Origin: Narcine bancroftii
Lineage: Eukaryota
Direction: 5' to 3'
Length of the DNA: 64,000 bases
Assembly: GCF_036971445.1 (NCBI RefSeq)
Contig: NC_091469.1
Span: forward strand, 353,152,001-353,216,000
Position 1 is the stretch's first letter. Each line of letters starts with the position of its first letter. Positions 8,661 to 56,186 of the stretch are shown here, piece by piece. Both the position numbers and the translations under genes were made by a program. The notes under the pieces are model-generated. The model was not told the DNA's origin. It did not search any database and was given only the letters and a program-made list of their open reading frames with translations.

Positions 8661-8839
8661 AGTGAATGTTATTTGTGTTCCTGAAGCAGAACTTGCAGCC
8701 AGAAAGGAGATGATTTCATGATAATTGTGATTTGACTGCAACATTATACCAAATGAAATTTACAACAGGTTAAATTAACTTCCGTTCTATAGGATCCAAT
8801 TTATAAACATAACTTCTAAATCATTAAAAAATATCATAC

Positions 8840-10168
8840 CTCTGGTAGTCTTTGCAATGAAGATAATCCATATGAGTTGAACTTTTTCAGCACTGCTTGA
8901 ATGTTAGTTTTTTTCAGAGTCTGTTCAAATCTATCATATTCCTGAACATAAGTCACTTTACTGCATTCTTTTCCTGGCATTTTAGCAGATAAATTCAATG
9001 TTGAATCAAGGAAAATCTCATTGGTATTCAGCAGTCCATAAATAACCTGGCGAATATTCAATGAACACCTGTGACTGCTGGTCCTACGCATATTTTCTAC
9101 CTGAGCAGGGAGGAAAGTTCTCCTCAAGGTCAAGCAGTCACTAAGAAATGGAGCCAATTCTCCTCTCAAGAGAGCAACTAACATCCACTCTGGGGCTTTG
9201 CTGGCCAACACAGTGGGAACATGGGGCCTGATGTCCTTGTTCTGAAAGTACGTTGCAAGATCCACTTCTGACTGAGTGTATTCATCCATATGAAAATATA
9301 AAAGTTCTCTGATCTTCTCATGTTCACTTTGCTTTATGTACCTCAAAATGTCTTCTATTGCCTCCTTTGGTTCAGAAAACCCAGACAGCCAGTTCAGGAG
9401 CCCTTGAATTCGCACATTCTTCCTTCCTGCTGAAGTCCTTGCATGGAAATGTACTCTGGTGAAAATGTTCTCCAAAGAGGGAAGATTAATATAATCATTA
9501 CCATTCAACACAGCAAAAAGTGGAAGAAGAGCTTTGTTCATGTGATTAAAATAGTTGCAGAAATTTTCAATTGAGAAACACTGAGCCGAAATATAGAATT
9601 TTGAATGATCTTCCAGACTACATACATTTTTCCACTTGAAATAATTGAGGGGACAATAACCAGCCTTCAAATCAAAGATACAGAAGTCACTGTCCAGTGT
9701 TAGGACAGGGCAATTCCATTGATTTGCAAGAGCGACAATGTCGCGGTCTGCTTCAGAATGACATTGGACAAATGGTATTTGCAACTGCACTAAAACTTGT
9801 TTAAAAACTTCTGGTGCAAGGAGCGGCAGAACTGTACCTCCTCCACCCCTCAAAATGGAGTGTGCCTTTATGATTTTGTCCCTGGCACGTTCTTTGATGG
9901 TTTCAATTTTTTTATCACTATAGTCGCATCCACCATCAAAAATCACATATGGTGAAATATTACATTGTGACAGAGATTCAAAGAATTTACAGATGATATC
10001 TCCAAATGAATCATATTCACCTCCATATTTAAGATCCAAATCTGAGTCAAAATAAAGTCTGTGAAATAAGTTATTGCCGTCAATTATAATCCTAACATTA
10101 TGCAATGTTATATCATTAAAAAATTGATGATTTTCTCCAATGTAGGACATCAATCCATGGATACCCAT
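8840..10168 (-). CDS. ASTE1: ASTE1 first (large) coding exon, XPG/PIN-like nuclease N-terminal region; exon spans 10191-8840
   Basis: 443 open codons starting MGIHGLMSYI, with IIIDGNNLFHRLY, YVIFDGG, EADRDIVALANQWNCPVLTLDSDFCIFD and LFAVLNGNDY motifs. Acceptor ctttcttacttag| before 10191 and donor GAG|gtatga at 8840. Divergent neighbour is NEK11, as in mammals. Confidence 0.95.
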
Positions 10169-11799
10169 GTTGTGCTGTGATCGCCTTCATCCTAAGTAAG
10201 AAAGAGAAACAAATTGGGATTGTTAGATCACATATGAATACCACATATGAGGTACAAAAGCAGTCATGCAGCCAAATAAACACAAATAAGTCAATATCTA
10301 TTTTCAACTGTTAAATAATTTTAACACAACTCAATATTGAATGATTTTACCACAGCTCAACAGAAATTTGGAGTATGCCATAATTTCCATTTCACTCCTC
10401 CCGTGGGAGTAGCCACATTTATCCACCTCAACTTTGGCATGAGCTCATTCATTTCAAGAAATTACCATAGGCATTGTATTCAAACATTCGAACCAGCCTC
10501 TGGGGATCTACAATCACCACTGTCCACTTGCACTTACTTTTTTTCTCTCCCCGATGATATTTGATAATTTGCAAACTGAAATTGTCAATATTGATTGCAA
10601 AAGTTACATTTTGAAGATCATGGAAATATGAAATCCAACAGATGTTTGGAATACTCAGAACTGATGAAAGGTTATTTCTGTTCTATCTTGATAGAGGATA
10701 CATGAAAGCATTTATCCCATTCAAAAATACCATACTTTTAGTTACAACTTTTTAAATATATTAATGTACTTAGAAAATGTGGTAGCAATTCCAGTCTTCA
10801 AAAATCCTTGGATATAGTTTATAAATTATTTTAATGCAAGATTTTAAAATTTAGAATCTTTCATATAGAACACCATCTAATATCACGACAAGGGTGTGGT
10901 GAAAAACAAGTAATCAAAAGGAAATACTTCACAATAATAACTACACGAAAAAAAACTTCACTGAGGCTTTTGGCAATTCAAGGTTGTGATATAAATATTA
11001 AAAAGGATGGAAGCAGTAGTTTTCACTGGCAAGGCTATGCCATTCGACTTCAGAGAACGAAGATAGCTAATGCTGGTAAATTGAGATGCTTTCTTTCAGT
11101 GAATTAGACAGAAGAATCCACAAAAAGGCAGTGTCAAAAATGTAATGTGGTAATTACACAAGTCAAAATTACAAGGTGATGGTGTTAAATCAGGGTTGAT
11201 ATTTTCATGTTTTAGTTACACTTAAAGGATATATGTGCAAAGGCATGCTTGGAGATTTAACCTCAAAACAAAGGTACAAGCTATATTTCCTTTAATATTA
11301 TGAATATTCCAAGGGTTAAACCAAGCTTTAATCCCCTGAAGAGTTACAGTTAGGGGATTTCAGCAATTTTGAAATCATTTTGATAGCCGAGCCAGAGAAA
11401 AAGAAACTGGGCATTTGTCAGACAACATGAAAACCAAAGCCTGGATATTAGGAGAAAAACTCTTCAAAGTCTGAATCAAAATCCTGAATTGGGGGAATAA
11501 TTCTGAGAAGGTAGAAAAAAATTGTAAGTCACAAGATGCAGGGACTTGTGTCTGGTGCGATGCTGGTGTGAAAAATAAGCATGCTTAATAATAAATGTTG
11601 GTACAGATTCTTCCCCTCCACTTTCAGATTTCTGAAGGAACACTGAACCTCTGGACACTACCTCACTTTTTTTGAAATATTCCATTCTTTTTATTGTTAA
11701 TTTTTACACCTTCTTCTGCACAATACTGCTATAAAGCGACAAATTTCATGTTCTTGACAATAAACCTGATTCAAGAGGCGCTACTGTTTGGAACAAGGT

Positions 11800-12990
11800 G
11801 CCAACGATTCGCAACTGGTAGAAATCAGCGGGTCAGGAAGCAGCCACGTGTAACAGCGGCTCGAAATGACCCGAAACGTGATTCCCCTCCGCGGACGCTG
11901 TCTGGTCCGCTGAGTCCTTCCAGCTGCCCGTGGTTTGGTTCGTCCTTGTAGTTCTCAATGATTGGACCCAACTAATTGCCACCCCATCCCGAGGGGAGAC
12001 TGGTGCCCCTTGACGGGGCGAAACGTTGCGCTTTACCCCAGGCGTCGACCCCCGCAGCCTGGCTCTCAGCGGGGCAGCAGCAGCTCCTTCACTCTGTCTC
12101 CGATACTGTTCCAATACTTCATCTGTTGCAGGAGCGGCCGGGCGTGCCGCGGGCGGCCCTGCTCGAAAGCTCGGCCCACCTGCTCGTCCAGCTCTCGCAG
12201 TCGCTGTTCCACCGAGGCGGCGACGCGCTGGATACTGGCCTGGCTCTCGGCCTCGGCCAGCCGCTCGTTGAGCTCCAGCACTGCGCCCAGGAAGGCGGGG
12301 TCGTCGGCTGGGGCCTCGTCCTCCGCCGCCAACCGCTCGTCCGGCAGCTCCAGCCCCAGCAAGTAGAGGCCTCGGGACACGGGCCTGAGCAGCGCGGCGT
12401 ACGCCTCGTTGAGCAGCGCCGATTGCTCCTCCGAGTAGCGGCGCTCGGTCTCGGAACTCCGGCCGAAGTTGTCCGGGTGGAGGGCCCGCTGCAGGCGCCG
12501 GTGCGACTCCCGCAGCCGCTCGACGTCCAACCGGAAGCGGCGCGGGAGTCCCAGCAGCTGGAAGTAATCGAGCCGCCGGTCCGGGGGCTGCAGGGCCCGG
12601 CAGGAAGGGCAGAAGAAAGAGGACGGTTCAGGGCTTGCCCCGCACCGCCAGCACCCGGTCGCGGCGGGAGAGAACGCACGCAAGCCGCTCGGAACAGCGG
12701 CTCGGTACCAGAGCTCGAGGTCTCGGCCCAGGGGCTGGGGACCCGCCCCAACCGGCCGCCTGAGTTCTTGAGCGGCGCGTGAACGCCGGCCCGTCAGGAC
12801 GGCCAAGCGAACCGTACGCATCAAGGAACAGAACATCGCGGAAAGGCAGCTGGCGCCAGGCCAAGCATCGGCGTCACTGGCCGGCCCGCCCTCTCTGCCT
12901 GTCGGCCCGCCAGCCAGCCAGACTCCCACGACAGCGCCCCCGGTCTCCGAGACGTCGGGCGGTTACACTCTCCCGTGACCCAGTCATTCA
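11800..12990. promoter_or_regulatory. CpG island covering the HSCB gene and its probable promoter
   Basis: Abrupt shift to very GC- and CpG-rich sequence against an AT-rich, CpG-poor background. Confidence 0.8.
12066..12836 (-). CDS. HSCB: Mitochondrial iron-sulfur cluster co-chaperone HscB/HSC20, single exon, 256 aa
   Basis: Arg-rich presequence MFCSLMRTVRLAVLTGRRSR; tetracysteine motif CWRC...FFCPSC followed by ALQPPD..DYF; J domain LQRALHPDNF...LLNEAY...SRGLYLL; C-terminal domain FL..VLELNERLAEA...MKYW. No introns, stops or frameshifts. First ATG at 12836 (the ORF track starts at an upstream GTG). Confidence 0.95.
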   Translation of the reverse strand: MFCSLMRTVRLAVLTGRRSRAAQELRRPVGAGPQPLGRDLELWYRAAVPSGLRAFSPAATGCWRCGASPEPSSFFCPSCRALQPPDRRLDYFQLLGLPRRFRLDVERLRESHRRLQRALHPDNFGRSSETERRYSEEQSALLNEAYAALLRPVSRGLYLLGLELPDERLAAEDEAPADDPAFLGAVLELNERLAEAESQASIQRVAASVEQRLRELDEQVGRAFEQGRPRHARPLLQQMKYWNSIGDRVKELLLPR

Positions 12991-15210: not shown

Positions 15211-16326
15211 TATTGCACCCAGGGCATTGTTTGAGGTCATTGCCACCGACATATAAGCAGCATTCTTGGCGTAGGGCTTCCTTTTCTCAGTGGGTGGGCA
15301 GGTAGGTGCATAGCTGAGAATGAGTCTGTGCAAATGCAGAGAAGATGTACGTCATTTTTAATTAAAAAAAATAGTTTGACCCGTTTGGTTTGAGAAACTG
15401 ATGGAAACAAAGTATAATTTCTGGCGGAACAAGGAAGTCTGCAGGTGTTGTGAATGTAGTTTAATTATACTCAGCGGGCCACGCGGCATTCGTTGTGTAG
15501 CAACGATACATACCAATGTTTCCATTCAGGCGCCTTGATCACGGGCTCAGGTCTGCAAAGTTGGGTATGTATCGTTGCGACGTGAAGAACGCTGCGTGAC
15601 TTGCAGAGTTCCTCCGGCACTTTTGTGTATAATTTCCAGTTAGTATCTCGTTATATTTATAGAGATTTGACCGTATTAGCTGCTCTTTTTAGTTTGGTTT
15701 GCAGAGTCCAGCAAAAATCTATATTCGTTCAGTAATTAGAAAGGAATTAACTGGTTTTATTGAAAAATCTTCCGTTTTCCGATGATCAGCTATTTCTATC
15801 AGCGAAGAAGAATTCCGTGCAGTTCCTCCACTCCATCAAAATGCTTTAAAATGCCGTTTTGATTTCTCCTCCGTCTTTTGTTGTGGGATCCGTGGAACCT
15901 TAAATGGGAACAACAACCTGTTGCACGGTCCAGTTGGGTTTGCAACACGAGTTTCAAGCACACAAGTTGACTTCTGTGAGAAAACGAGCTGCTGGGGGAA
16001 CTCCGCGTCCAACAGTAGAGAGGCAAACAGCTGCTTTGTGTAAGTAATAGTATCTCCTTTCTCAATTAAAGTTTCGACCCGAATGATTGACAATTTTTAC
16101 CTGGTCAGAGTTTCTTCAACAGCTCATTTGTTTGTTCAAGGTTATGGTACCTACAGGCTCTTTTTTTTCACACATTTCTATGTTTGCCATTTGTTTCCCT
16201 TGGAAACTTTGGCAACTTTTAATGACGACATGCTAGTCCAGGTCCAAGATTATCGCTATGAGTAGGTGCTGGGGAAGGCTTGACAACTGTTTTTAGGAAA
16301 AGTGCAACTAAGTTTACGGTCTCAGA

Positions 16327-19300
16327 GTGGTACACCTCCGGCCTACTGCAGGGGGCAACCTCTGTGCCTGCAGGAGTGTAAGGGGACATGACAACACCTG
16401 GCCAGCTGTCAATCAGTCGGCCTGAATGGATCAAGCCCCACCCGGTCGGGTGTCAATCACCCTCCAGGATATATGCCTGCGCCGGCCTCCCAAAGTCTCA
16501 CTCAGTTACTGCAGCTACAGCCAGCCTGGCTCTGTGGAAGTCTTTGTGGATTAAAGCCTGTTGTACAGTCTTTACCTTGTGTGTGTCTGATTCAGGCTAA
16601 CAGCACACGGCAATATAATCCACAAAATTTTCCCACGGCTGCCATGGAAAACTCCTGAGCGGAGGGAGCCTTGAAGTCGACCCACATCACCCAGATGCCC
16701 AGACACGCTTTGAGATCTGGCAGCACATGGTCGAGGTAATCATCGAAGCACACGAAGGCAGTATCCTGGACTCGGATCAGAAGAGGTTGGACCTACTCCG
16801 GTCAAAGCTGGGTCCCCGCGCCATCCAGGCAACCAAAGGCTGCTTCACGTACAAGAGCGCAATGGACAACCTCAAGAACTTGTACAAGCCCCCCATGAAT
16901 GTGGTCTGTGCAAGGTACCTCCTCAACACCCGAGTCAGCAACCCGAGGAGATGACTGAGTCTTACCTGGGACACCTGCGAGAGTTGGCCTGACCATGTTT
17001 GGCTGAACCCGGGCTACGCTCGAGGGCCATCCAGCAGAGGCTGCTGGAAGACAATATCTATGCCCTAACCAAGATAGTGGAAGTGGTCCAAACCCTGGAA
17101 GCGGCAGCCCTGCACATCGATGCCTTCGATTCCAGCTTCCCTCATGGCCCTCTCACTCTGCAGTCCCAGACTGAACTGGAGACGAGAACATAGCTGTGGC
17201 AGGTGCCCGGCGCCCCTTGAAGTACTCTGGGTCCTGGTGTGGATCAGACTGACGATCGCACCAAAACTGCCCAGCTAGGAACCTGTACTGTTCCCGATGC
17301 GGTAAGAAAGGCCACTTTGCTAAAGTATGCCTCTCAAAACCAACCGGCAGCTCAGCGGCCCTCTATGACCTCCCCCCCGGACCCCTCCATGTGCACGTGC
17401 TGGGCAGTGCCATTGTCCCCGCTACAACTTGTGCAGTGTCCGGCCCCGCCAGTGATGATTGCATCGTGTGCCCTGAGCACCTGGACCAGCCCTCGCCAGC
17501 GCAGCTCACCGAGAACCAGAACCAAAGTGATGTCACTTCCGGCTGAAGTGATGACTTTACTTCCCTGGCGCAACGAACATGGCTGGGGAAGGAGGCCAGC
17601 CATGTGGCGGGACCAAAAATGCCGCTGCCATCTTGGGCCAGGCAGTGGCCGACACAGAGGGCCCCTGACGACGATGTGGTCAACACGAGCGATGACCAGG
17701 CTGCCCCACCGATACACCCCACACCTCTGGGCGTCATTGGTTGCCACACGTCACCCCATGACCGACGTCGATGTGGTCAACACGGGCGATGACCAGGCCG
17801 CCCTACCGACGTTCCCCACGCCTCTGGACACCGTAAACCACTGCACACAGCCGGAGAGTGACAACTCCAACCCCGAAATGGTCCTGGCTGCAACCACTCT
17901 GACCAGGGACATCCCTCACGACCTTGGGCGCTCTATGATGGGTGTGCAAGTCAATGGGCAGGTAACAAAGTGCCTGTTCAACAGTGGCAGCACCGAGAGC
18001 TTCATTCACCCGAGTGTGACCCACTCCCTGAGATTAAAAGTCCACCCCACCACCTGCTCAATCACCCTCGCCACCAAGGATAAGACTGTTGATACCCTTG
18101 GCATTGCTCGGCCAATATAACTGTGAGAGGGGAGACCTACACGGGGTTCAGGCTCCTGGACATGCCCAAACTCTGTGCCCCAGTCGTCCTGGGCCTGGAT
18201 TTCCAGTGCCAGCTGTGGAGTGTCACCCTTGTCTTCTGTGGGACACAATCTCCACTCAAGTTGCACAGCGCGCCAACCTACCAGTCTCAACCAACCTGTG
18301 GCCTCTCCACACTAAGCATCACCCCACCGGCACTCTTCCCACATCTTACACTAGGTTGCAAGCCAATCGCTGCCAGAAGTAGGCACTATTACACCGCAGA
18401 CAGAGACTTCATCAAGGCGGAGGTGCGGCGACTCCTGGTAGAAGGTGTCATAGAGCCCAGTAACAGCCCTTGGAGAGCCCAAGTCCTGGTGGTCAAAGGG
18501 GAAAATAAGCCGAGGATGGTCATGGATTACAGCCAGACCGTTAACTGGTACACCCAACTGGATGCCTACCCCCTGCTGAGAATAGCCGACATGGTCAACG
18601 AGATAGCCCACTACCGGGTTTTCTCCACGATTGACCTGAAGTCGGCGAATCACCAAATTCCCATCCACCAGTAGGATAAACCCTACATAGCCTTTGAGGC
18701 AGATGGGCACCTATACCAGTTCCACCGTGTTCCCTTTGGGGTCATGAACAGGGTTTCCATCTTCCAGCGGGAGATGGATAGCATGGTAGACCAGCACAAG
18801 CTAAAGGCGACGTTCCCGTATCTGGATAGCGTCACTTTCTGCAGCTGTGACCAGCAGGACCATGATGCTAACCTGGAAAAATTCCTCCAGACGGCCACTG
18901 AGCTGAACCTCACTTACAACAAGAAGTGTGTGTTTAGCACCACCCGACTCGCCATCCTGGGGTACATCGTGGCCCATGGGGTCATTGGCCCAGATCCAGA
19001 AAGGGTGTGTCCATTAATGGAGCTACCTCTTCCCCCCCATGCTAAAGGCCCTCCGCAGGTGCCTTGTCCTATTCTCCTATTACTAACAGTGGGTCCCTCG
19101 CTTCTTGGACAAGGTCTGCCCACTGGCCCAAGCAACAACTTTTCCCCTCCCACCCGAGGCGCAGGCACCCTTCATCCGCATCAGGCAGGACGTTACGGAC
19201 GCCACAATGCAGGCCTTGGATGAGGACTCCCCCTTTCCAGGTGGAGAGCGATGCCTTCGAGGTAGCCCTCGCCGCTACCCTCAACCAAGGGGGGCACCCC

Positions 19301-21091
19301 GTCACTTTCTTCTCTCGGACCATCCATGGCTCCAAGCTAGGGCATTCCGCCATTGAAAAGGAGGCCCAAGCAATTGTGGAAACAGTCTGGTACTGGTGCC
19401 ACTACCTGGCCGGCAGGAGATTCACCCTCCTCACTGACCAGCGGGCCTTGGCGTTCATGTTTAACACTACCCACAAGAGCAAGATCAAGAACGCTGGAGA
19501 GTCGAGCTGGCAACCTACAGCTATGACATCCAGTACAGCCCCAGAAAGTTTAACGTCTCCCCTGATGCCCTCTCTTGGACTTGTGCCTCTGCTATCCGGG
19601 TGTCACCAGGTTGTAGTACTTCATTAAGTCCCGGAACCTGCCATATATCGTCAGGGACATGACCGAGGCCTGCCGGGTCTGCGCGGAGTGAAAAGCCCAT
19701 TTCTTCTGCCCATGCCAGGCCTATGTCATAAAGGCCACCTGGCCTTTCGAGCGTCTCGGCATGGATTTCAAAGGGCCCCTGCGTTCCACAAACCAAAATG
19801 TCTACTTCCTCATGGTTGTGGACGAGTACTCGCGCTTCCCTTTCGCTATCCCTTGACTGGACACCTCCATGACCACCATCATCAGGGTCCTGGAGCAGAT
19901 CTTCACCATGATTGGCTACCCTGCTTTCATCCACAGCGACTGGGGGTCTAGTGTCATGAGTGATGAGCTGCGCCAGTACTTGACGGCGAGGGGCATTGCG
20001 ACTAGCTGCACAACGAGTTATAACCCGGGAGGCAATGGGCAAGTGGAACGCAAAAACATGGTAGTCTGGAAGGCAGTCCTCCTGGATCTCAAGTCAAAAA
20101 GGTGGGCAGTTGAGTACTGGCAGGACGCCCTGCCCGAGGCGCTCCATGCCATTCAGTTGCTGCTGTGTATGGCTACCAACGAGACCCCTCATGAACATCT
20201 GTTCTCATTCCCCAGGAAGTCAGTGACGGGAATGTCCCTCTTAGCATGGCTCACGTCCCCGGGACTGGTGCTCCTGCATAAACACGTATGGACACACAAG
20301 GCCTGGTCAAGCAGGTCTTTTTCCTATATGCGAACCACAACTACGCCTACGTTAGGTTTGGCAGTGGTAGGGAGCACACCGTCTCAACCAGGGACCTGGC
20401 ACCAGCAGGAGCACACACCACTCCTTCAGTACAGGATGACGCCAACTAGGCGTACATCCCCATCCCCAGGCAGCTATGGGTGCGCAGGACCTCCTTGACC
20501 ACCAGGGGCCTGCTTCAGCCCTGGGGGACAAACCTGCCCCCCCTCCCCTTCCAATACGACTCTCACACGTCGACCCTTGCCTCCTCGGCCACCCCTCCGC
20601 ACAGCACCACACCAGTCACACAGACCCCTGACTCCAGCACCCCCCCTCCCCCCACTTCCCCACCGACCAGTGACCAGGAGCCAGTCCTACAACGGTCACA
20701 GAGACCCCGGCAGCCACCAGATCGTCTCAATCTGTAAATATTGTATTTTGTATAGTGGGTATGATTCCTTGTTACTGCCTCCCCCCCCTGGACAATTTTA
20801 AAGAAGGGGGTGAATGTGGTGGTACACCACCGGCCTACTGCAGTGTGCAACCTCTGTACCTGCAGGAGTGTAAGGGGACAGGACAACACCTGGCCGACTG
20901 TCAATCAGTCAGCCTGAATGGAACAAGCCCCACCCAATCGGGTGTCAATCACCCTCCAGGATATAAGCCTGCGCCGGCCTCCCAAAGTCTCACTCATTTA
21001 CTGCCTGGCTCTGTGGAAGTCTTTGTGGATTAAAGCCTGTTGTACAGTCTTTACCTTGTGTGTGTCTGATTCTGGCTAACAGTGCACCACA
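16327..21091 (+). mobile_element. Near full-length defective Ty3/Gypsy LTR retrotransposon (gag-PR-RT-RH-IN)
   Basis: LTRs at 16327-16612 and 20815-21091 (TGTGGTG...CACCACA). TSD CAGA (16323-16326, 21092-21095), with the first 4 nt of the 5' LTR missing. Polypurine tract (PPT) AAAGAAGGGGGTGAA; gag ATG 16644; protease LFNSGS; RT SPWRAQVLVV, DYSQTVN, LDAYP, FPYLDS; RH ESDA, FFSRT; IN HSDWGS, YNPGGNGQVER. Many frameshifts and stops. Confidence 0.95.
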
Positions 21092-22942: not shown

Positions 22943-24044
22943 TGTGTTGACCTTTAATTTAATGTTAAACTATTTATTTTATAAAAATGTGTTGGTAAAG
23001 TAAATTATAGTTAAAATGTTGTATCTGTATTCTTAGTAAGTTAGCTATGGGTTGGTACAAGGTCACAGCACATTTATAAAGAACTATTTTCTGAGAAGTG
23101 TGTTCATTCTCAGAGTCGATGCGTCTTGGACAGACAGCTAATTTATTTCAAGTAGGGCTTAGTTATGCAAGAACTGCTGATGAAGCCATCTGTTTGAAAT
23201 CAAAGCCACTTAAGCCTCTTGAACAGAGAGGAGACCAGAGTTTGTTATTTGTATAGAATAGTTTTGAAAAAGGAACAGAGTTTTGGTAGAAATAAAACTG
23301 ATGGTCATGTGGTTTTCAAGAATTGGGACTCCCCTCTGATGATGTAATGGTCACATGATTTGGAGAAATATATGACTAAATTCAGACATTTTGAGTTCAG
23401 TTTTGGAAAAGTTCACTTTGGACAGAAGTCAAAACCCTATGCCTTGTGAAAGACAGGGTTGAGCAACAGTAACCAGAATTGTTGCTGTTGTGTGTTACTC
23501 CTGGGAAAAGAGAACACAGAATCAGTAGCTTTTGATTTAAGGAAGACCATTTTACTGTCTCTTTGGAAAAGAACAGATTTCTATTTTTGTGTTTGGCCAC
23601 TTCGCTTAAACCTTCTCTGGTTTGTGACTTCATCGTGGAAGAAAATAGCCACTTAGTTTAACCTGTGTCTGCGTTTCTGACTTCATCCTGGAAGAAAATA
23701 GCCAATTCGTTTAATCTGTGTCTGGGTTTCTGACTTCATCCTGGAAGAAAATAGCCACTTCGTTTAACCTATCTCTTGGTTTGTTAATTAATTTGGGGGA
23801 AAAGGTGAGTAAAGAGGCCTGAATATATAATGTTTAAAAGCACTTTATAATTATTCTGAACTAAGAATTTAAGACCTTCAAGCAAGACTAAAATGATGTT
23901 GAACTTTTGCTTACGCACACACAGTGAGGTTAAGTTTAGAGATGAGTAAGAAATGTTATGTTAATAGTTTAATTAAAAACTATTATTTTGAATTAACCAT
24001 TTGCTGGTAGATTTTCCATTCCTGTTTCTGTGTTGGTGTGAACA
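22943..24044 (+). mobile_element. Solo LTR (about 1.1 kb) with about 52-bp internal tandem repeats
   Basis: TG...CA ends; organisation resembles the 7555-8486 LTR; unit GCCACTTCGTTTAACCT...TGACTTCATCCTGGAAGAAAATA repeated about 3.5 times at 23595-23780. No TSD seen. Confidence 0.6.
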
Positions 24045-44270: not shown

Positions 44271-46524
44271 GTTCAGCCCAACCACAAAAGAGCAGGAGAA
44301 CAAGACTAATTAGATAGTTCTTCTAAGAGGCAGTGGAGAACAAGTAGTTTTTGATGTCCTGTGAATGTAAGAAATGTGGCAAATATTTTGTGTACTGCAA
44401 GCTCTCACAAACAGTAAGAATAATTGGATAGCTAGGACACTGAGGATAAACCTTGCTCTGGAAAATAGTGAGGCAGATTAGATGCATTCACCTGAGAGAG
44501 AAGTTGGAACTTTTGATACCTTGTCTCAAATCCAGCACCCTATTGGGTCAGCCAGCCCAGAGAATTGTATTCTGCTCTTTTGAGCCCACACCTTCTGAAT
44601 CTGAAGGATGTTGCAGCCACTGAGACTTTAGCACTCTGTAGTCTCAGAATTGTACAGCACAGAATCTGGCCCTTTGACTCACTACCTTCACACCAGCAAG
44701 TGCTCCTGCCTACGATGATTCCACTTACTCCATTTAGTTCAATTTGTTCTAAGCCTTGGTGTCTGGTAAGACTGAACATTTTAGCTTTGATCAGTTGGGA
44801 TGTTTCAGTACATTTCTCAAGCAGGATATTTCCATCCAGTTTTTAAACTGCTGGGAGAATATAATGTCATCAATTGACTATCAAATACCTCCGCTATGTG
44901 GACTACATTACTCTGAAACAAAATGACTATGAGATATTTAAAATGTTGACACAGATGTGTTGAGGCAGTTCTAGAAATCTTTGGAGGTCGGTCTGAGTTT
45001 GTCACAAATTCTGACAATGGTCCCATCTCCGATCAGAGCTGTAGGTGCTCACTCCTCAAATAATATGAATGAAGAGGTGAAATTAGTCAAAGAATTAATT
45101 TTAAGATTTATGGCATGCAATAGACTAAAGAGGCGTTCATATAATTTCATGAGTATTTTCTCAACTGAATAACAATTCGCTCTCGCTGGAAAGTCAGAAT
45201 ACCTGAATTATTGTGCGTGGTTGCATCACCCCCTCGGAAACTATTGTTTTATCTACTGTGCATCTCTTCAGATTTTTTTTTGTTAATCTAAATGGTTTGT
45301 CACGCTTTACTTTGTTTTCCTCCCTATTTGGGTAAAAGAGTGTCATTTTTCATTTTCCAATTGAATGGAACCTTCCCTGAATCTAGGTACAGGTCCTCTA
45401 ATTGTTAGAAAATCATGACTTATGGTCATCTGGTACCTGTGTTTTGAGGGCTGGTGGGATAGGTGGCGCTGGATTTACTGCAGGCTTGGTGTCATGGTGG
45501 TGGGGGTGGCATTTGAGGGTCATGGCTCCCCAAATGAGTTATGTCCTCCCACCCACCTGCAGCACTAGTGTCACGTGGTTTTGTGTCCACACACTCTGAG
45601 CTTGTGAGTTTCTCTGTTACATTGGAGGGAGGGGGAAGAGTGACACTGGCACACAGAGGTGGTTCATGGTAGGTATGGTATCTACTCTCCTGCTACTGAG
45701 TGAGTCTTTGAATGTCATTTTGTACCCCACAATTAGACTTGTTCTGACCCCAACTCTGATTTGCTGGCTGCTGTGGGGTTGTAGACATCTTCTACTGAAT
45801 GCGAACGGGTTTTTCTTCTCCCCTTGTCCCCTGTTCCTCCTCCCCAGAGTCACAAGAATTGAGGCTGAGTCAAGCCGAGCGGGCTTGCTCACTAACTAAG
45901 TCAGTGAGGTTGGCTGGGGGTCACTTTCCCTATACCTGCTTGCTCTCCATCACCTGTTTCTGTTATCCTCTCCCACTCATGGTCTTTGTTCACTTCTGCT
46001 TTGTGAATGGATTGGGTTCTCAGGAACTGAACTCTGACATAACCTGAACACTGCCTGGAATTTGAGAAAACAACCAAAGCATCAACTAATACACTAGCTC
46101 CACGGTAGCCAACCTTTAAATTTTTAATTAGTTATACAGCATGGTAACAGGCCATTTCAGTCCACAAATCTCCGCTGCCCAATTAACCTACACCCTGGTA
46201 CATACTCGAGGGCTGAAATGGCCTGTTACCGTGTAATATAACTAAATTAAAAAGTTGGCCATTCCTGCACTACCTGTTAATGTTGTGCGATGAAGCCTAT
46301 TGCCACTCAACAATTTATCAGTCTGCGAGTCCAACGATTTGCTCAATACCACTGAATTGGTGATAGTAATTTTTCTTAATTCCTCTCCCCCTTCCAATTA
46401 ATGAAGTGCACCTTTTTCTGGGATGTAATGTTTATCCTCTAGGAGGTGAAGACTGTTGCAAAATATCTGTTTAATTCATCTACCATTTTCTGGTCTTTCC
46501 AGTGAGGTAAATCTAATGTAGTCT

Positions 46525-53228: not shown

Positions 53229-56186
53229 TGTGAGTGCTGCTTTGCAAATAATTCTGTCGCAAAGTCCACAGACTGTACAACAGGCTTTAATTAGCTTAAA
53301 CTTGTACACACCAGTCTCAGTATCTTCCTGGCTCCATGTGTCTGACTGTCCCCGAAGGGGCCAGCTTGAGTCTTTATAAGGGCTGGGATTGACAGACGGC
53401 AGGTGGGGCCAGCCTCTCAGGTTACCCACCTTCAGGTACAGTGGTTGCCCCTGCAGTAGGCTGGTAGGAGTGCGGCCAGTGTACTGGTTGTATCACCACA
53501 TTCACCCCCTTAAAATGAACCCTGGGGGTGGGGTTACTGAGTAGTATCTACAAGTTCAGGCTGTCTGGCAGTTGTCTGTGCTTCTGGGACTGCTGCAGGA
53601 CAGGCTCTTGGTCAATGGTCAGTAGGGACAGGGCTGCCTGAGGGCTGGCTGGGTTTGGGCAGGATGGTGTCTGGCAGAGTGGGGGTGTCGGTGGGGAGCA
53701 GGTTTGCGGGGAGTGGGGCCCTCTGGAGAGGCAGAGGTACCAGAGGGAGTAGTAAGAAAAGAGCCCTCGGCACCTGCGGAGGGTCTTGAAAATATGGGGG
53801 AGGGGCAATACCATTAGGGGGCGCATGTATTCAGGATCGGGACCGATGACACTATGTTCCATGATGCTCCCCAGGATGGTGAGGCGGGTGGTCCTGAACA
53901 CTCACTTCTACCTGTAGAAGGTGAGGTTTAGTGCTTCTGCCATCCGGAGGAATCTCTCCAGGTTGGCATCGTGGCCGCAGATGGTGACATTGTCCAGGTA
54001 CGGGAAAGTCACTCTTAGATTGTGCTGCTCTACCATGCAGTCCATCTCCTGCTGAAACATGGAAACTCCATTTGTGACCCCAAACGGGACCCGGTGGAAC
54101 TGGAAGAGGCGTCTGTCTGCCTCAAACGCAGTATAAGGTTTATTTTGGGCATGGATGAGGAGCTGATGATAGGCCAACTTCAGGTTAATCGTGGCAAAAA
54201 CCCTGTACTGGCCTATCTTGTTGACCATGTCGTCGATGCAGGGCAGTGGTTAGGCATCCAGCTGGATGTACTGGTTGATGGTCTGACTATAGTTGATGAC
54301 CATCCTCTGTTTGCTGCTTCCTTTTACAACAAGGACCTGGGCTCTCCAGGAGGTGGTGCTGGGCTCTATAACTCCTTCCGCCAGAATCTGTCTCACCTTT
54401 GCCTTGATAAAGGTTCTGTCGGCTACACAGGTAGTTGAAGAGGGATGGAGCGGGCACCTGCAGGTGGTCTGAGGGCAGTCGCTGGACTTTGTGCTGTGGA
54501 TGGTGAGTGGGGGGAGTGGGCCACCAAAGGTAAGGGTGAGACTGTGGAGGTAACACTGGAAGTCCAGTCAAGTTCACTGAGCAGCACCCTAGTGCCGAGA
54601 TGGAGTGGTCCTTGGCCGCAAAAGCGATAGTGAAGTTTGCTGGGTATACTTTGAGTTTCAGTGTACGGATCACATTTGGGTGCACAAAGCTCTCAGTACT
54701 ACTGCTATCAAACAGGGATTTTATTACCTTCCATTTGACAGCTATGTCCATCATCGAGCGCCCGAGTCAATGGGGAATGTCTTCCTTTAGTGTGGTGGAC
54801 ACTAGGACTGCCTCGGGGACTGAGTTGCTGTTCCCTGATGGTTGTGGCGAGTAGCAGCCAGTGGGTGTCTTTAGGAGCATGGGGCGCAATGAGTGAGCAG
54901 TTTTGTTTGCATGTGTGTTGACCACGCTGTCTGGTCGGTGAGTTGGGGTGGGTGGGGGTCGGCTGGCCCATGATGTAAACGGACATGGCTTCAGCGTGGT
55001 TGGTTGACCTGGCTGTAGGTGATGTCGTCGGTATGGGCGGAAGTTGGATGGTTGGGCCAGACGTGACATCATAGGTGACATCATAGGTAGGGGCGTGGTA
55101 ATGGCGCTGCCCAGCATTCACACGTGGGGGCGCCGAGAGAGTTGGAAGGTGCTCCTGGTCAGTCGTGGATAGCTGTAGCATTCCCAGTGGGTTTGGAGAG
55201 GTACACTTTAGCGAAGTGGCCTTTCGTGCCACGTCAGGAGCAATGCGAGTTCCTCACAGGGGAGTTCTTTCGGGAGCGCCTGTCCAACCCATGCCAGGAC
55301 CCACAGTACTTGGAGTGATGGACTGCGTTGGCAGTGGCAATTGTCTCTTCCATGTGGGGCCCCTCAGTGACTGCTGTTGTCGATGTCAGCCAGGCTGGAG
55401 GTTGGGGGAGGTGAGGATCGAAGACCTTTCCATGGTGAGCTGCAGCTTCTAGGGAGCGGTTCACCTCCATGATCCTGGTAAGGGAAGCATTATTCTCCTC
55501 CAACAGTCTCTGTTGAACCGCCGTCGACTGGAACACTCGCACATAGGCATCTCAGATGAGTCGCTCCACCTCCCTAGCAGTCACCCCAGCTTCAATCATA
55601 CACAGGCGAGCTAGTTCTTGCTGTGCCCCCAGGTAAGCATTTGTCATCTTGCCTGGCTGCTGTACCCTGATGCTGAGCAGGTACCAGGTGTAGTGTATGT
55701 TTGTCGGGGGCTGGTACGTGCCTTCCAGGACAACCATTGCTGCTTCAAAATCCATGGAAAATGTGCATAGTACCATGAGTTTCTTCTGGTTAGTGTTGTT
55801 GACCTCAGCCTGTGTGTGGATGATCACATGATTCCAGATCTTGAAGTATGTTGGAGCGTCTGGATGTTGAGAGTCAATATCCAGCTCTCGAAGGTGAGGA
55901 GCTTCTCCATGGTCATTTTAATTTTAAGCTAATTAAATTGTGAGCGCTGCTGCACAAATAGTTCTGACGCAAAGTCCACAAACCATATAACAGGCTTTAA
56001 TTAGCTTAAACTTGTACACCAATCTCAGTATACTGCTGGGTCCACATGTCTGACTGTCTCGAAGGGGCCAGCTTGAGTCTTTATACAGGCTGGTGATTGA
56101 CAACTGGCAGGTGGGGCCAGCCTCCCAGGTTACCCCCTGCACTAGGCTGGAAGGAGTGTGGCCAGTGTAGTGGTTGATTTACCATA
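53229..56186 (-). mobile_element. Internally deleted Gypsy LTR retrotransposon, same clade as 16327-21091
   Basis: LTRs at 55939-56186 (5') and 53229-53500 (3'); PPT AAGGGGGTGAA; gag ATG at 55910 (MEKLL..LDIDSQHPDA); protease LFDSSS; RT RVPFGVTNGVSMFQ, FPYLDNV. RNase H and integrase absent; no clear TSD. Confidence 0.92.

Follow-up and report, generated by a model that had tools for sequence, protein, structure and literature searches.

Genomic context and anatomy of the elements

The window, a stretch of 64,000 nt from Narcine bancroftii (NCBI RefSeq assembly GCF_036971445.1, contig NC_091469.1, positions 353,152,001 to 353,216,000), contains two decayed Gypsy LTR retrotransposons of one lineage. 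Element 1 spans 16327-21091 on the + strand and comprises the following features:

16327..16612, + strand: 5' LTR, aligned with the 3' LTR; its initial bases are lost together with part of the target duplication
16470..16475, + strand: TATA-like motif TATATG, read from the sequence and positioned 73 nt ahead of the segment; other families have a comparable spacing
16543..16555, + strand: predicted self-primer segment TTTGTGGATTAAA, ending in an ATTAAA hexamer (16550-16555)
16556..16613, + strand: 58-nt loop that would hold the remaining R, U5 and one spacer base, with a GT-rich stretch inside
16614..16626, + strand: putative primer-binding position TATAATCCACAAA, complementing 16543-16555 at 12/13 positions, 11 of them contiguous
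16644..20738, + strand: decayed gag-PR-RT-RNase H-IN region with stops and frameshifts; ATG at 16644
20801..20810, + strand: polypurine tract, followed by 4 bases and then the 3' LTR
20815..21091, + strand: 3' LTR with a second copy of the segment, without a primer site behind it

Element 1 is decayed and belongs to a large Gypsy (Ty3-like) lineage of animals that carries a self-complementary primer position. Its membership of Ty3/Gypsy is indicated by an LTR pair with TG..CA ends, the polypurine tract, a target-site duplication and decayed protease, RT, RNase H and integrase domains in Gypsy order, with Ty3 as the nearest solved structure. The two LTRs are identical at 256 of 276 aligned bases, the 5' LTR end at 16612 is in register with the 3' LTR end at 21091, and CAGA at 16323-16326 is the remnant of a target duplication that reads CAGAT behind the 3' LTR. 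Contigs aligned on the element end loosely at 20815 and 21091, thereby confirming the LTR ends; neither a transcription start nor a poly(A) site showed in the contigs.

The first-pass annotation of this DNA had proposed that element 1 lacks a TGG-type primer site and pairs the corresponding position with its own LTR instead. Both observations hold, as do the coordinates, pair count and loop length: a single base (16613) separates the LTR end from the complementary stretch, without TGG, and the distance from the TATA-like motif, first put at about 75 nt, is 73 nt. The lone mismatch of the stem, at 16615, is peculiar to the window copy; among the top 30 family-1 hits the stem is 13/13 in 24 and has at least 12 pairs in all 30, counts that are biased upward because the hits were chosen by similarity to a stem-containing query. 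That a site at this offset should complement any 11-mer of the LTR by chance has a probability of about 1e-4. Folding of the 101-nt region gives z = -3.65, equalled by 0 of 200 shuffles; in a 146-nt version with the presumed leader the stem is kept at a z of only -1.33.

Element 2 (53229-56186, - strand; about 3 kb) has a perfect 15-bp primer-site stem:

55939..56186, - strand: 5' LTR, of a different family but the same lineage as element 1
55996..56010, - strand: LTR segment TTTAAGCTAATTAAA, which pairs with the primer position
55923..55937, - strand: putative primer-binding position TTTAATTAGCTTAAA, a 15/15 complement with one spacer base and a 58-nt loop
53229..53500, - strand: 3' LTR, from LTR comparison

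Its RNase H and integrase appear to be deleted, since the RT runs almost straight into the 3' region. The stem sequences of the two elements differ and their layout is common, namely LTR end, one base, and the complement of a segment ending in ATTAAA. Six inverted repeats in the window measure 11 bp or more and have a loop of 30-90 nt, and two of the six are these primer-site stems; further 11-bp inverted repeats of similar loop length lie at 15500-15578 and 46143-46230.

Other features of the window include an uninterrupted frame at 12066-12962 (- strand) in a GC-rich stretch, which encodes all three HscB co-chaperone domains (4-Cys, DnaJ and C-terminal) and is possibly an intact, intronless HscB retrogene. 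A 450-codon frame at 8834-10186 (- strand) with XPG N and XPG I_2 domains is presumably a large exon of an asteroid/ASTE1-like gene, and a 53-nt tandem unit is repeated three to four times at 23619-23792.

Lineage, hosts and sampling

The RT motif of the lineage has 8063 matches in the N. bancroftii genome, and the hosts of named relatives comprise rays, sharks, a damselfly, a leafhopper, spiders, Trichuris, Trichinella, Trichobilharzia and the jellyfish Sanderia; no relatives were found in viral contigs. All 32 full-length relatives have a tandem Cys-His knuckle in Gag, the last one being CCHC, and no chromodomain was detected at the integrase C-terminus at E<=0.1 in any of six full-length relatives. 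Target duplications were detected in 22 of 49 elements and measure 5 bp in all 22. An Rfam search returned a chance hit only. A search of full texts and supplements with the RT motif gave no match that would name the clade; the supplements for MolGy, PolGy, Tag and Cigr-1 likewise gave none, the positive control being unmatched in PMC2774666 as well. Two proteins of this animal Gypsy lineage, P0013 and P0030, are filed publicly as bacterial (MAG) integrases, probably through host contamination.

For the comparison across elements, 80 of the first 100 RT-motif matches listed, all from the first 26 Mb of one contig, were picked for varied motif spelling. Fifty had a flanking repeat; seven tandem arrays or doubtful repeats were removed, the two window elements were added, and 11 that lacked a callable shared CA end were dropped, which left 34 own-genome elements. 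From 80 metagenome loci, several of which come from one assembly, 46 were examined, 23 had a repeat, 17 were kept after removal of truncated, non-LTR or duplicate loci, and two were dropped to leave 15.

The stem recurs and covaries across LTR families

In a stem-blind test, LTR ends were called from LTR-to-LTR identity alone and a stem was scored positive at a score of at least 10 starting at most 3 nt from the LTR end. Thirty of 34 own-genome and 14 of 15 metagenome elements are positive. The flank behind the 3' LTR, used as a control, reaches a score of at least 10 in only 1/34 and 2/13, respectively. The five misses (L059, L060, L095, L105 and L132) look like truncated or decayed copies. 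The 44 positive elements fall into 21 LTR families, 13 from the own genome and 8 from metagenomes; these are related by descent and therefore do not represent 21 independent origins.

Primer site and LTR segment change in step between these families. The primer site matches its own LTR best in 20 of 21 families, and cross-family scores of at least 10 occur in 26 of 420 pairs. At register positions 7-13, 142 of 147 variable cells hold Watson-Crick pairs, and a single column has as many as four pair types; 2000 partner shuffles gave a mean of 73.8 and a maximum of 96.

Compensation is also seen at close range. L120 and L121 are identical at 403 of 408 positions around the junction, yet they differ by a compensated T-A to G-C pair that is present in both LTRs. 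Among the 29 scorable copies nearest to L087, retrieved with a query that carried both compensating changes, 18 have T-A where family 1 has G-C, eight have G/A, two T/C and one G-C. The T-A copies have a downstream tag in common, which points to an amplified compensated subfamily. In the family-1 context, 23 copies have a changed primer-site base versus 782 unchanged; when copies were picked on the changed base, only 1 of 22 scorable ones was compensated, as expected from decay after insertion. Altogether, 17 G/A-mismatched copies occur among the loci collected, so that mismatches in the stem arise by decay, tolerance or recombination. Within L264-L293, eight of the 29 copies near the T-A subfamily pair its primer site with the G allele of the LTR, and these mixed copies are possibly recombinants between subfamilies.

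Primer sites do not match the host tRNAs compared

The primer sites were compared with 27 distinct host tRNA genes of 13 anticodon types. The best complement to any of these measures 8 nt anywhere in the tRNA and at most 1 nt at the 3' end, the own LTR gives the longer match in 25 of 26 cases, and none of the 21 family representatives has a TGG primer site. Priming by an internal tRNA fragment, as in some Copia elements, has a precedent in half-tRNA priming according to the available part of one study (PMC6317226), and the comparison covered these 27 genes only. Such a primer is nevertheless disfavoured by the short tRNA matches and by the covariation of the primer site with its own LTR, and we hold it to be highly improbable.

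Other Gypsy elements of the same genome served as controls. We take these to be Mag-like, a label derived from their motif. Twenty loci yielded nine elements with an LTR pair, of which eight have a TGG site (read by eye) and one has a self-stem score of at least 10. In an RT tree confined to rows with hits of at least 120 aa and containing no chromovirus, 20 lineage elements and 10 protein relatives are split from six control rows (96/99). A motif search found no chromovirus reference in the genome or in viral contigs.

Taken together, the covariation over 21 families, the compensated subfamily and the tests against tRNAs and same-genome controls strongly support the tRNA-independent, self-complementary primer site that had been proposed from the window alone. 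At a probability of roughly 0.8, the RNA of the element itself, and not a tRNA, serves as primer for reverse transcription in this lineage, in a manner akin to Tf1.

Junction architecture and the poly(A) signal

The junction is built to a common plan. The spacer measures one base, the LTR runs directly into ATTT in 18 of 21 families, and the loop measures 35-77 nt. Across the predicted cut (marked by a slash) 20 of 21 families read AAA/purine, with GCC after the cut in 12 and ACC in three; in element 1 the RNA would be cut between 16555 and 16556. Position 10 above the predicted cut is a G-C pair in 20 of 21 families, as opposed to 7% G at neighbouring positions, and the poly(A) signal does not explain it. 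This pair is conserved while neighbouring pairs vary freely, and it is possibly a point of protein recognition.

The narrow range of loop lengths bears on the source of the primer. The segment is present at both ends of the RNA, being in R if the inference from the TATA-like motif holds, and solo LTRs are plentiful (2175 first-look candidates versus 782 exact primer-site matches). The primer could accordingly come in trans. Its source would be either the other segment copy, located at the 3' terminus of that RNA or of one packaged with it, or short RNAs derived from LTRs. However, the local partner lies only 35-77 nt away and folds in cis, and so tight a constraint on loop length would be needless for priming in trans, which makes such a source very improbable.

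A canonical hexamer (AATAAA or ATTAAA) lies at the segment end in 18 of 21 families. The stem could therefore serve mainly to hide the 5' poly(A) signal, with another host RNA acting as primer. In line with this, all 19 elements modelled are predicted to leave the hexamer unpaired less often in the 5' context than in the 3' context (median probabilities 0.05 versus 0.47), a difference that follows from the stem itself by construction. Yet L114, L117 and L129 keep a stem of 14-20 bp without a canonical hexamer in the segment; in L114 an AATAAA lies unmasked 26 nt inside the loop, and L117 and L129 have no hexamer there. Moreover, concealment of the signal requires neither a partner placed exactly one base past the LTR end nor the G-C pair at position 10, and no alternative primer site is visible. 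Masking as the main function thus appears very improbable. The dual role suggested for element 1 stands in part: masking is plausible as a secondary role of the self-priming stem, predicted as it is by the folding model, but pairing without a hexamer in three of 21 families means that it is neither required nor the sole purpose of the stem.

Proposed start site and mechanism

Most own-genome families have a TATA-like motif at a distance of about 76-97 nt upstream of the segment end, and none was found in the eight metagenome family representatives. From this spacing we infer a likely start 40-50 nt above the segment. In element 1, an initiator-like CTCACT/TCAGTT lies about 30 nt downstream of the TATA-like motif, and the two positions together would place the start near 16500. 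The primer segment would then probably be internal in the RNA rather than its first nucleotides.

Within self-priming, the classic Tf1 geometry presents a variant in which transcription would start at the segment itself, the primer would be the first 13-15 nt and the upstream TATA-like motif would go unused. Experiments have demonstrated this geometry alone (PMC7175516; PMC4600332), and alternative start sites are described in Tf2 (PMC5341516). The lack of the motif in all eight metagenome families also fits such a start. Against it stand the recurrence of the motif at its usual distance in unrelated own-genome families and the lack of one at the required distance of about 45 nt, the nearest being those of L048 at 52 and 60 nt. 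We consider the classic geometry less likely than an internal primer segment.

The self-priming model would proceed as follows. Transcription would begin in the 5' LTR, probably at the distance given above, and the segment would pair with the primer site one base beyond the LTR end. The RNA would be cut just 3' of the paired A-run (AAA/R, usually AAA/GCC or AAA/ACC), most likely by the RNase H of the element, as in Tf1. The new 3' end would prime a strong-stop DNA that is short, since only the 35-77 nt of the loop would be copied; in element 1 its predicted template is 16556..16613. This DNA would transfer to the 3' end of the RNA by way of the stretch of 15-30 nt that separates the hexamer from the poly(A) site. 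Where the segment includes the hexamer, concealment of the 5' poly(A) signal by the stem would be a secondary benefit. The model requires a poly(A) site downstream of the cut. Nineteen families, whose hexamer lies at the segment end or below it, agree with this, and the remaining two are uninformative.

A more specific proposal is put forward tentatively, at somewhat short of even odds. Self-priming may have originated independently in a non-chromoviral Gypsy lineage ranging from jellyfish to sharks, with an internal R segment as primer that is cut at a conserved G(N6)AAA/RC-like site on the poly(A) signal. One stem would then both stop 5' polyadenylation and supply the primer, with 15-30 nt left for strand transfer.

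Some 3' LTRs of the family of L035, L078 and L110 have GCTTTTATT in U5, the complement of AATAAAAGC just upstream, and the two could possibly form a competing hairpin inside the LTR.

Comparison with known systems

Self-priming is ascribed to the Tf1/sushi chromoviruses and is predicted for Tcn1 and the plant Copia elements TAR/Houba in the available parts of the literature (PMC6317226; PMC7175516; PMC4600332; PMC10085805; PMC5341516). The accessible portions of the papers searched contain no account of it in non-chromoviral animal Gypsy elements (PMC3601003; PMC6317226; PMC6238403; PMC8556966; PMC4600332; PMC10085805; PMC7175516; PMC6934838; PMC9873768; PMC5006619; PMC2871265; PMC2582038; PMC5341516; PMC2774666; PMC12471100). 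Nor was a published description of self-priming tied to a poly(A) signal found in such portions; Repbase Reports and subscription journals (e.g., Butler et al., 2001) lay outside the search, and a prior mention is possible.

If the reading of the present lineage is correct, independence from tRNA would be common, given how abundant the lineage is in a single genome, and may have evolved more than once. Self-priming would also explain why annotation tools fail to find a primer site in these elements, and the conserved junction provides an exact predicted cleavage site. Nor could tRNA fragments directed at the primer site block such elements if the reading holds.

Mag-type Gypsy elements, which occur in the same genome, resemble the present lineage in the tandem knuckle Gag, a trait of Mag elements. 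The same-genome controls, labelled Mag-type from their motif, differ in their TGG sites (8/9), in their position on the opposite side of the 96/99 branch of the RT tree and in their RT, which is about 23-34% identical to that of the lineage (HSPs of at least 50 aa) except for a 63-aa hit at 62% in L259. The poly(A) hairpin of HIV-1 likewise hides the 5' poly(A) hexamer; unlike the present stem, it is contained entirely in the LTR, and the primer site has no part in it.

The flatworm elements Saci-2/lennie are also non-chromoviral animal Gypsy elements with variable primer sites, but the available part of their description reports target duplications of 4 bp, priming by tRNA and a Gag with a CCCH motif (PMC12471100). 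The 5-bp duplications of the present lineage (22/22 found) and its tandem knuckle ending in CCHC (32/32) rule against identity with them. The plant Copia elements TAR/Houba/Osr-1 and the Gypsy element Tcn1, for which self-priming is predicted, show the same signature, a complement of at least 10 nt situated 0-5 nt behind the 5' LTR; they belong to another superfamily or to the chromoviral branch and to plant hosts, and the sections available report no link to the poly(A) signal (PMC6317226).

The closest parallel is found in Tf1/Tf2 of Schizosaccharomyces pombe, Tj1 and the Tf1/sushi group, which likewise have the order PR-RT-RH-IN, no tRNA site and a primer position that complements a segment of the 5' LTR (PMC7175516; PMC4600332; PMC10085805, as far as these are available). 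In Tf1 it is the first 11 bases that pair with the primer site, and RNase H cuts directly after base 11, as the accessible text describes (PMC7175516). The present lineage differs from this group in the chromodomain, absent from 6/6 relatives, in the tandem Cys-His knuckle of Gag (32/32), in its named hosts, which are animals, and in a primer segment that is probably internal and usually ends on a poly(A) hexamer. A Tf1-type pretzel would call for a further helix beside the junction; a scan of ungapped helices gave one in 2 of 21 families at p<0.05, which is not significant overall (Fisher p=0.12). On the evidence of the six relatives without a chromodomain, the lineage probably lies outside the Tf1/sushi group, and the primer-site stem, a real and lineage-wide feature, is best read, from sequence comparison, as a variant form of self-primed reverse transcription that resembles Tf1 in the way it would work.
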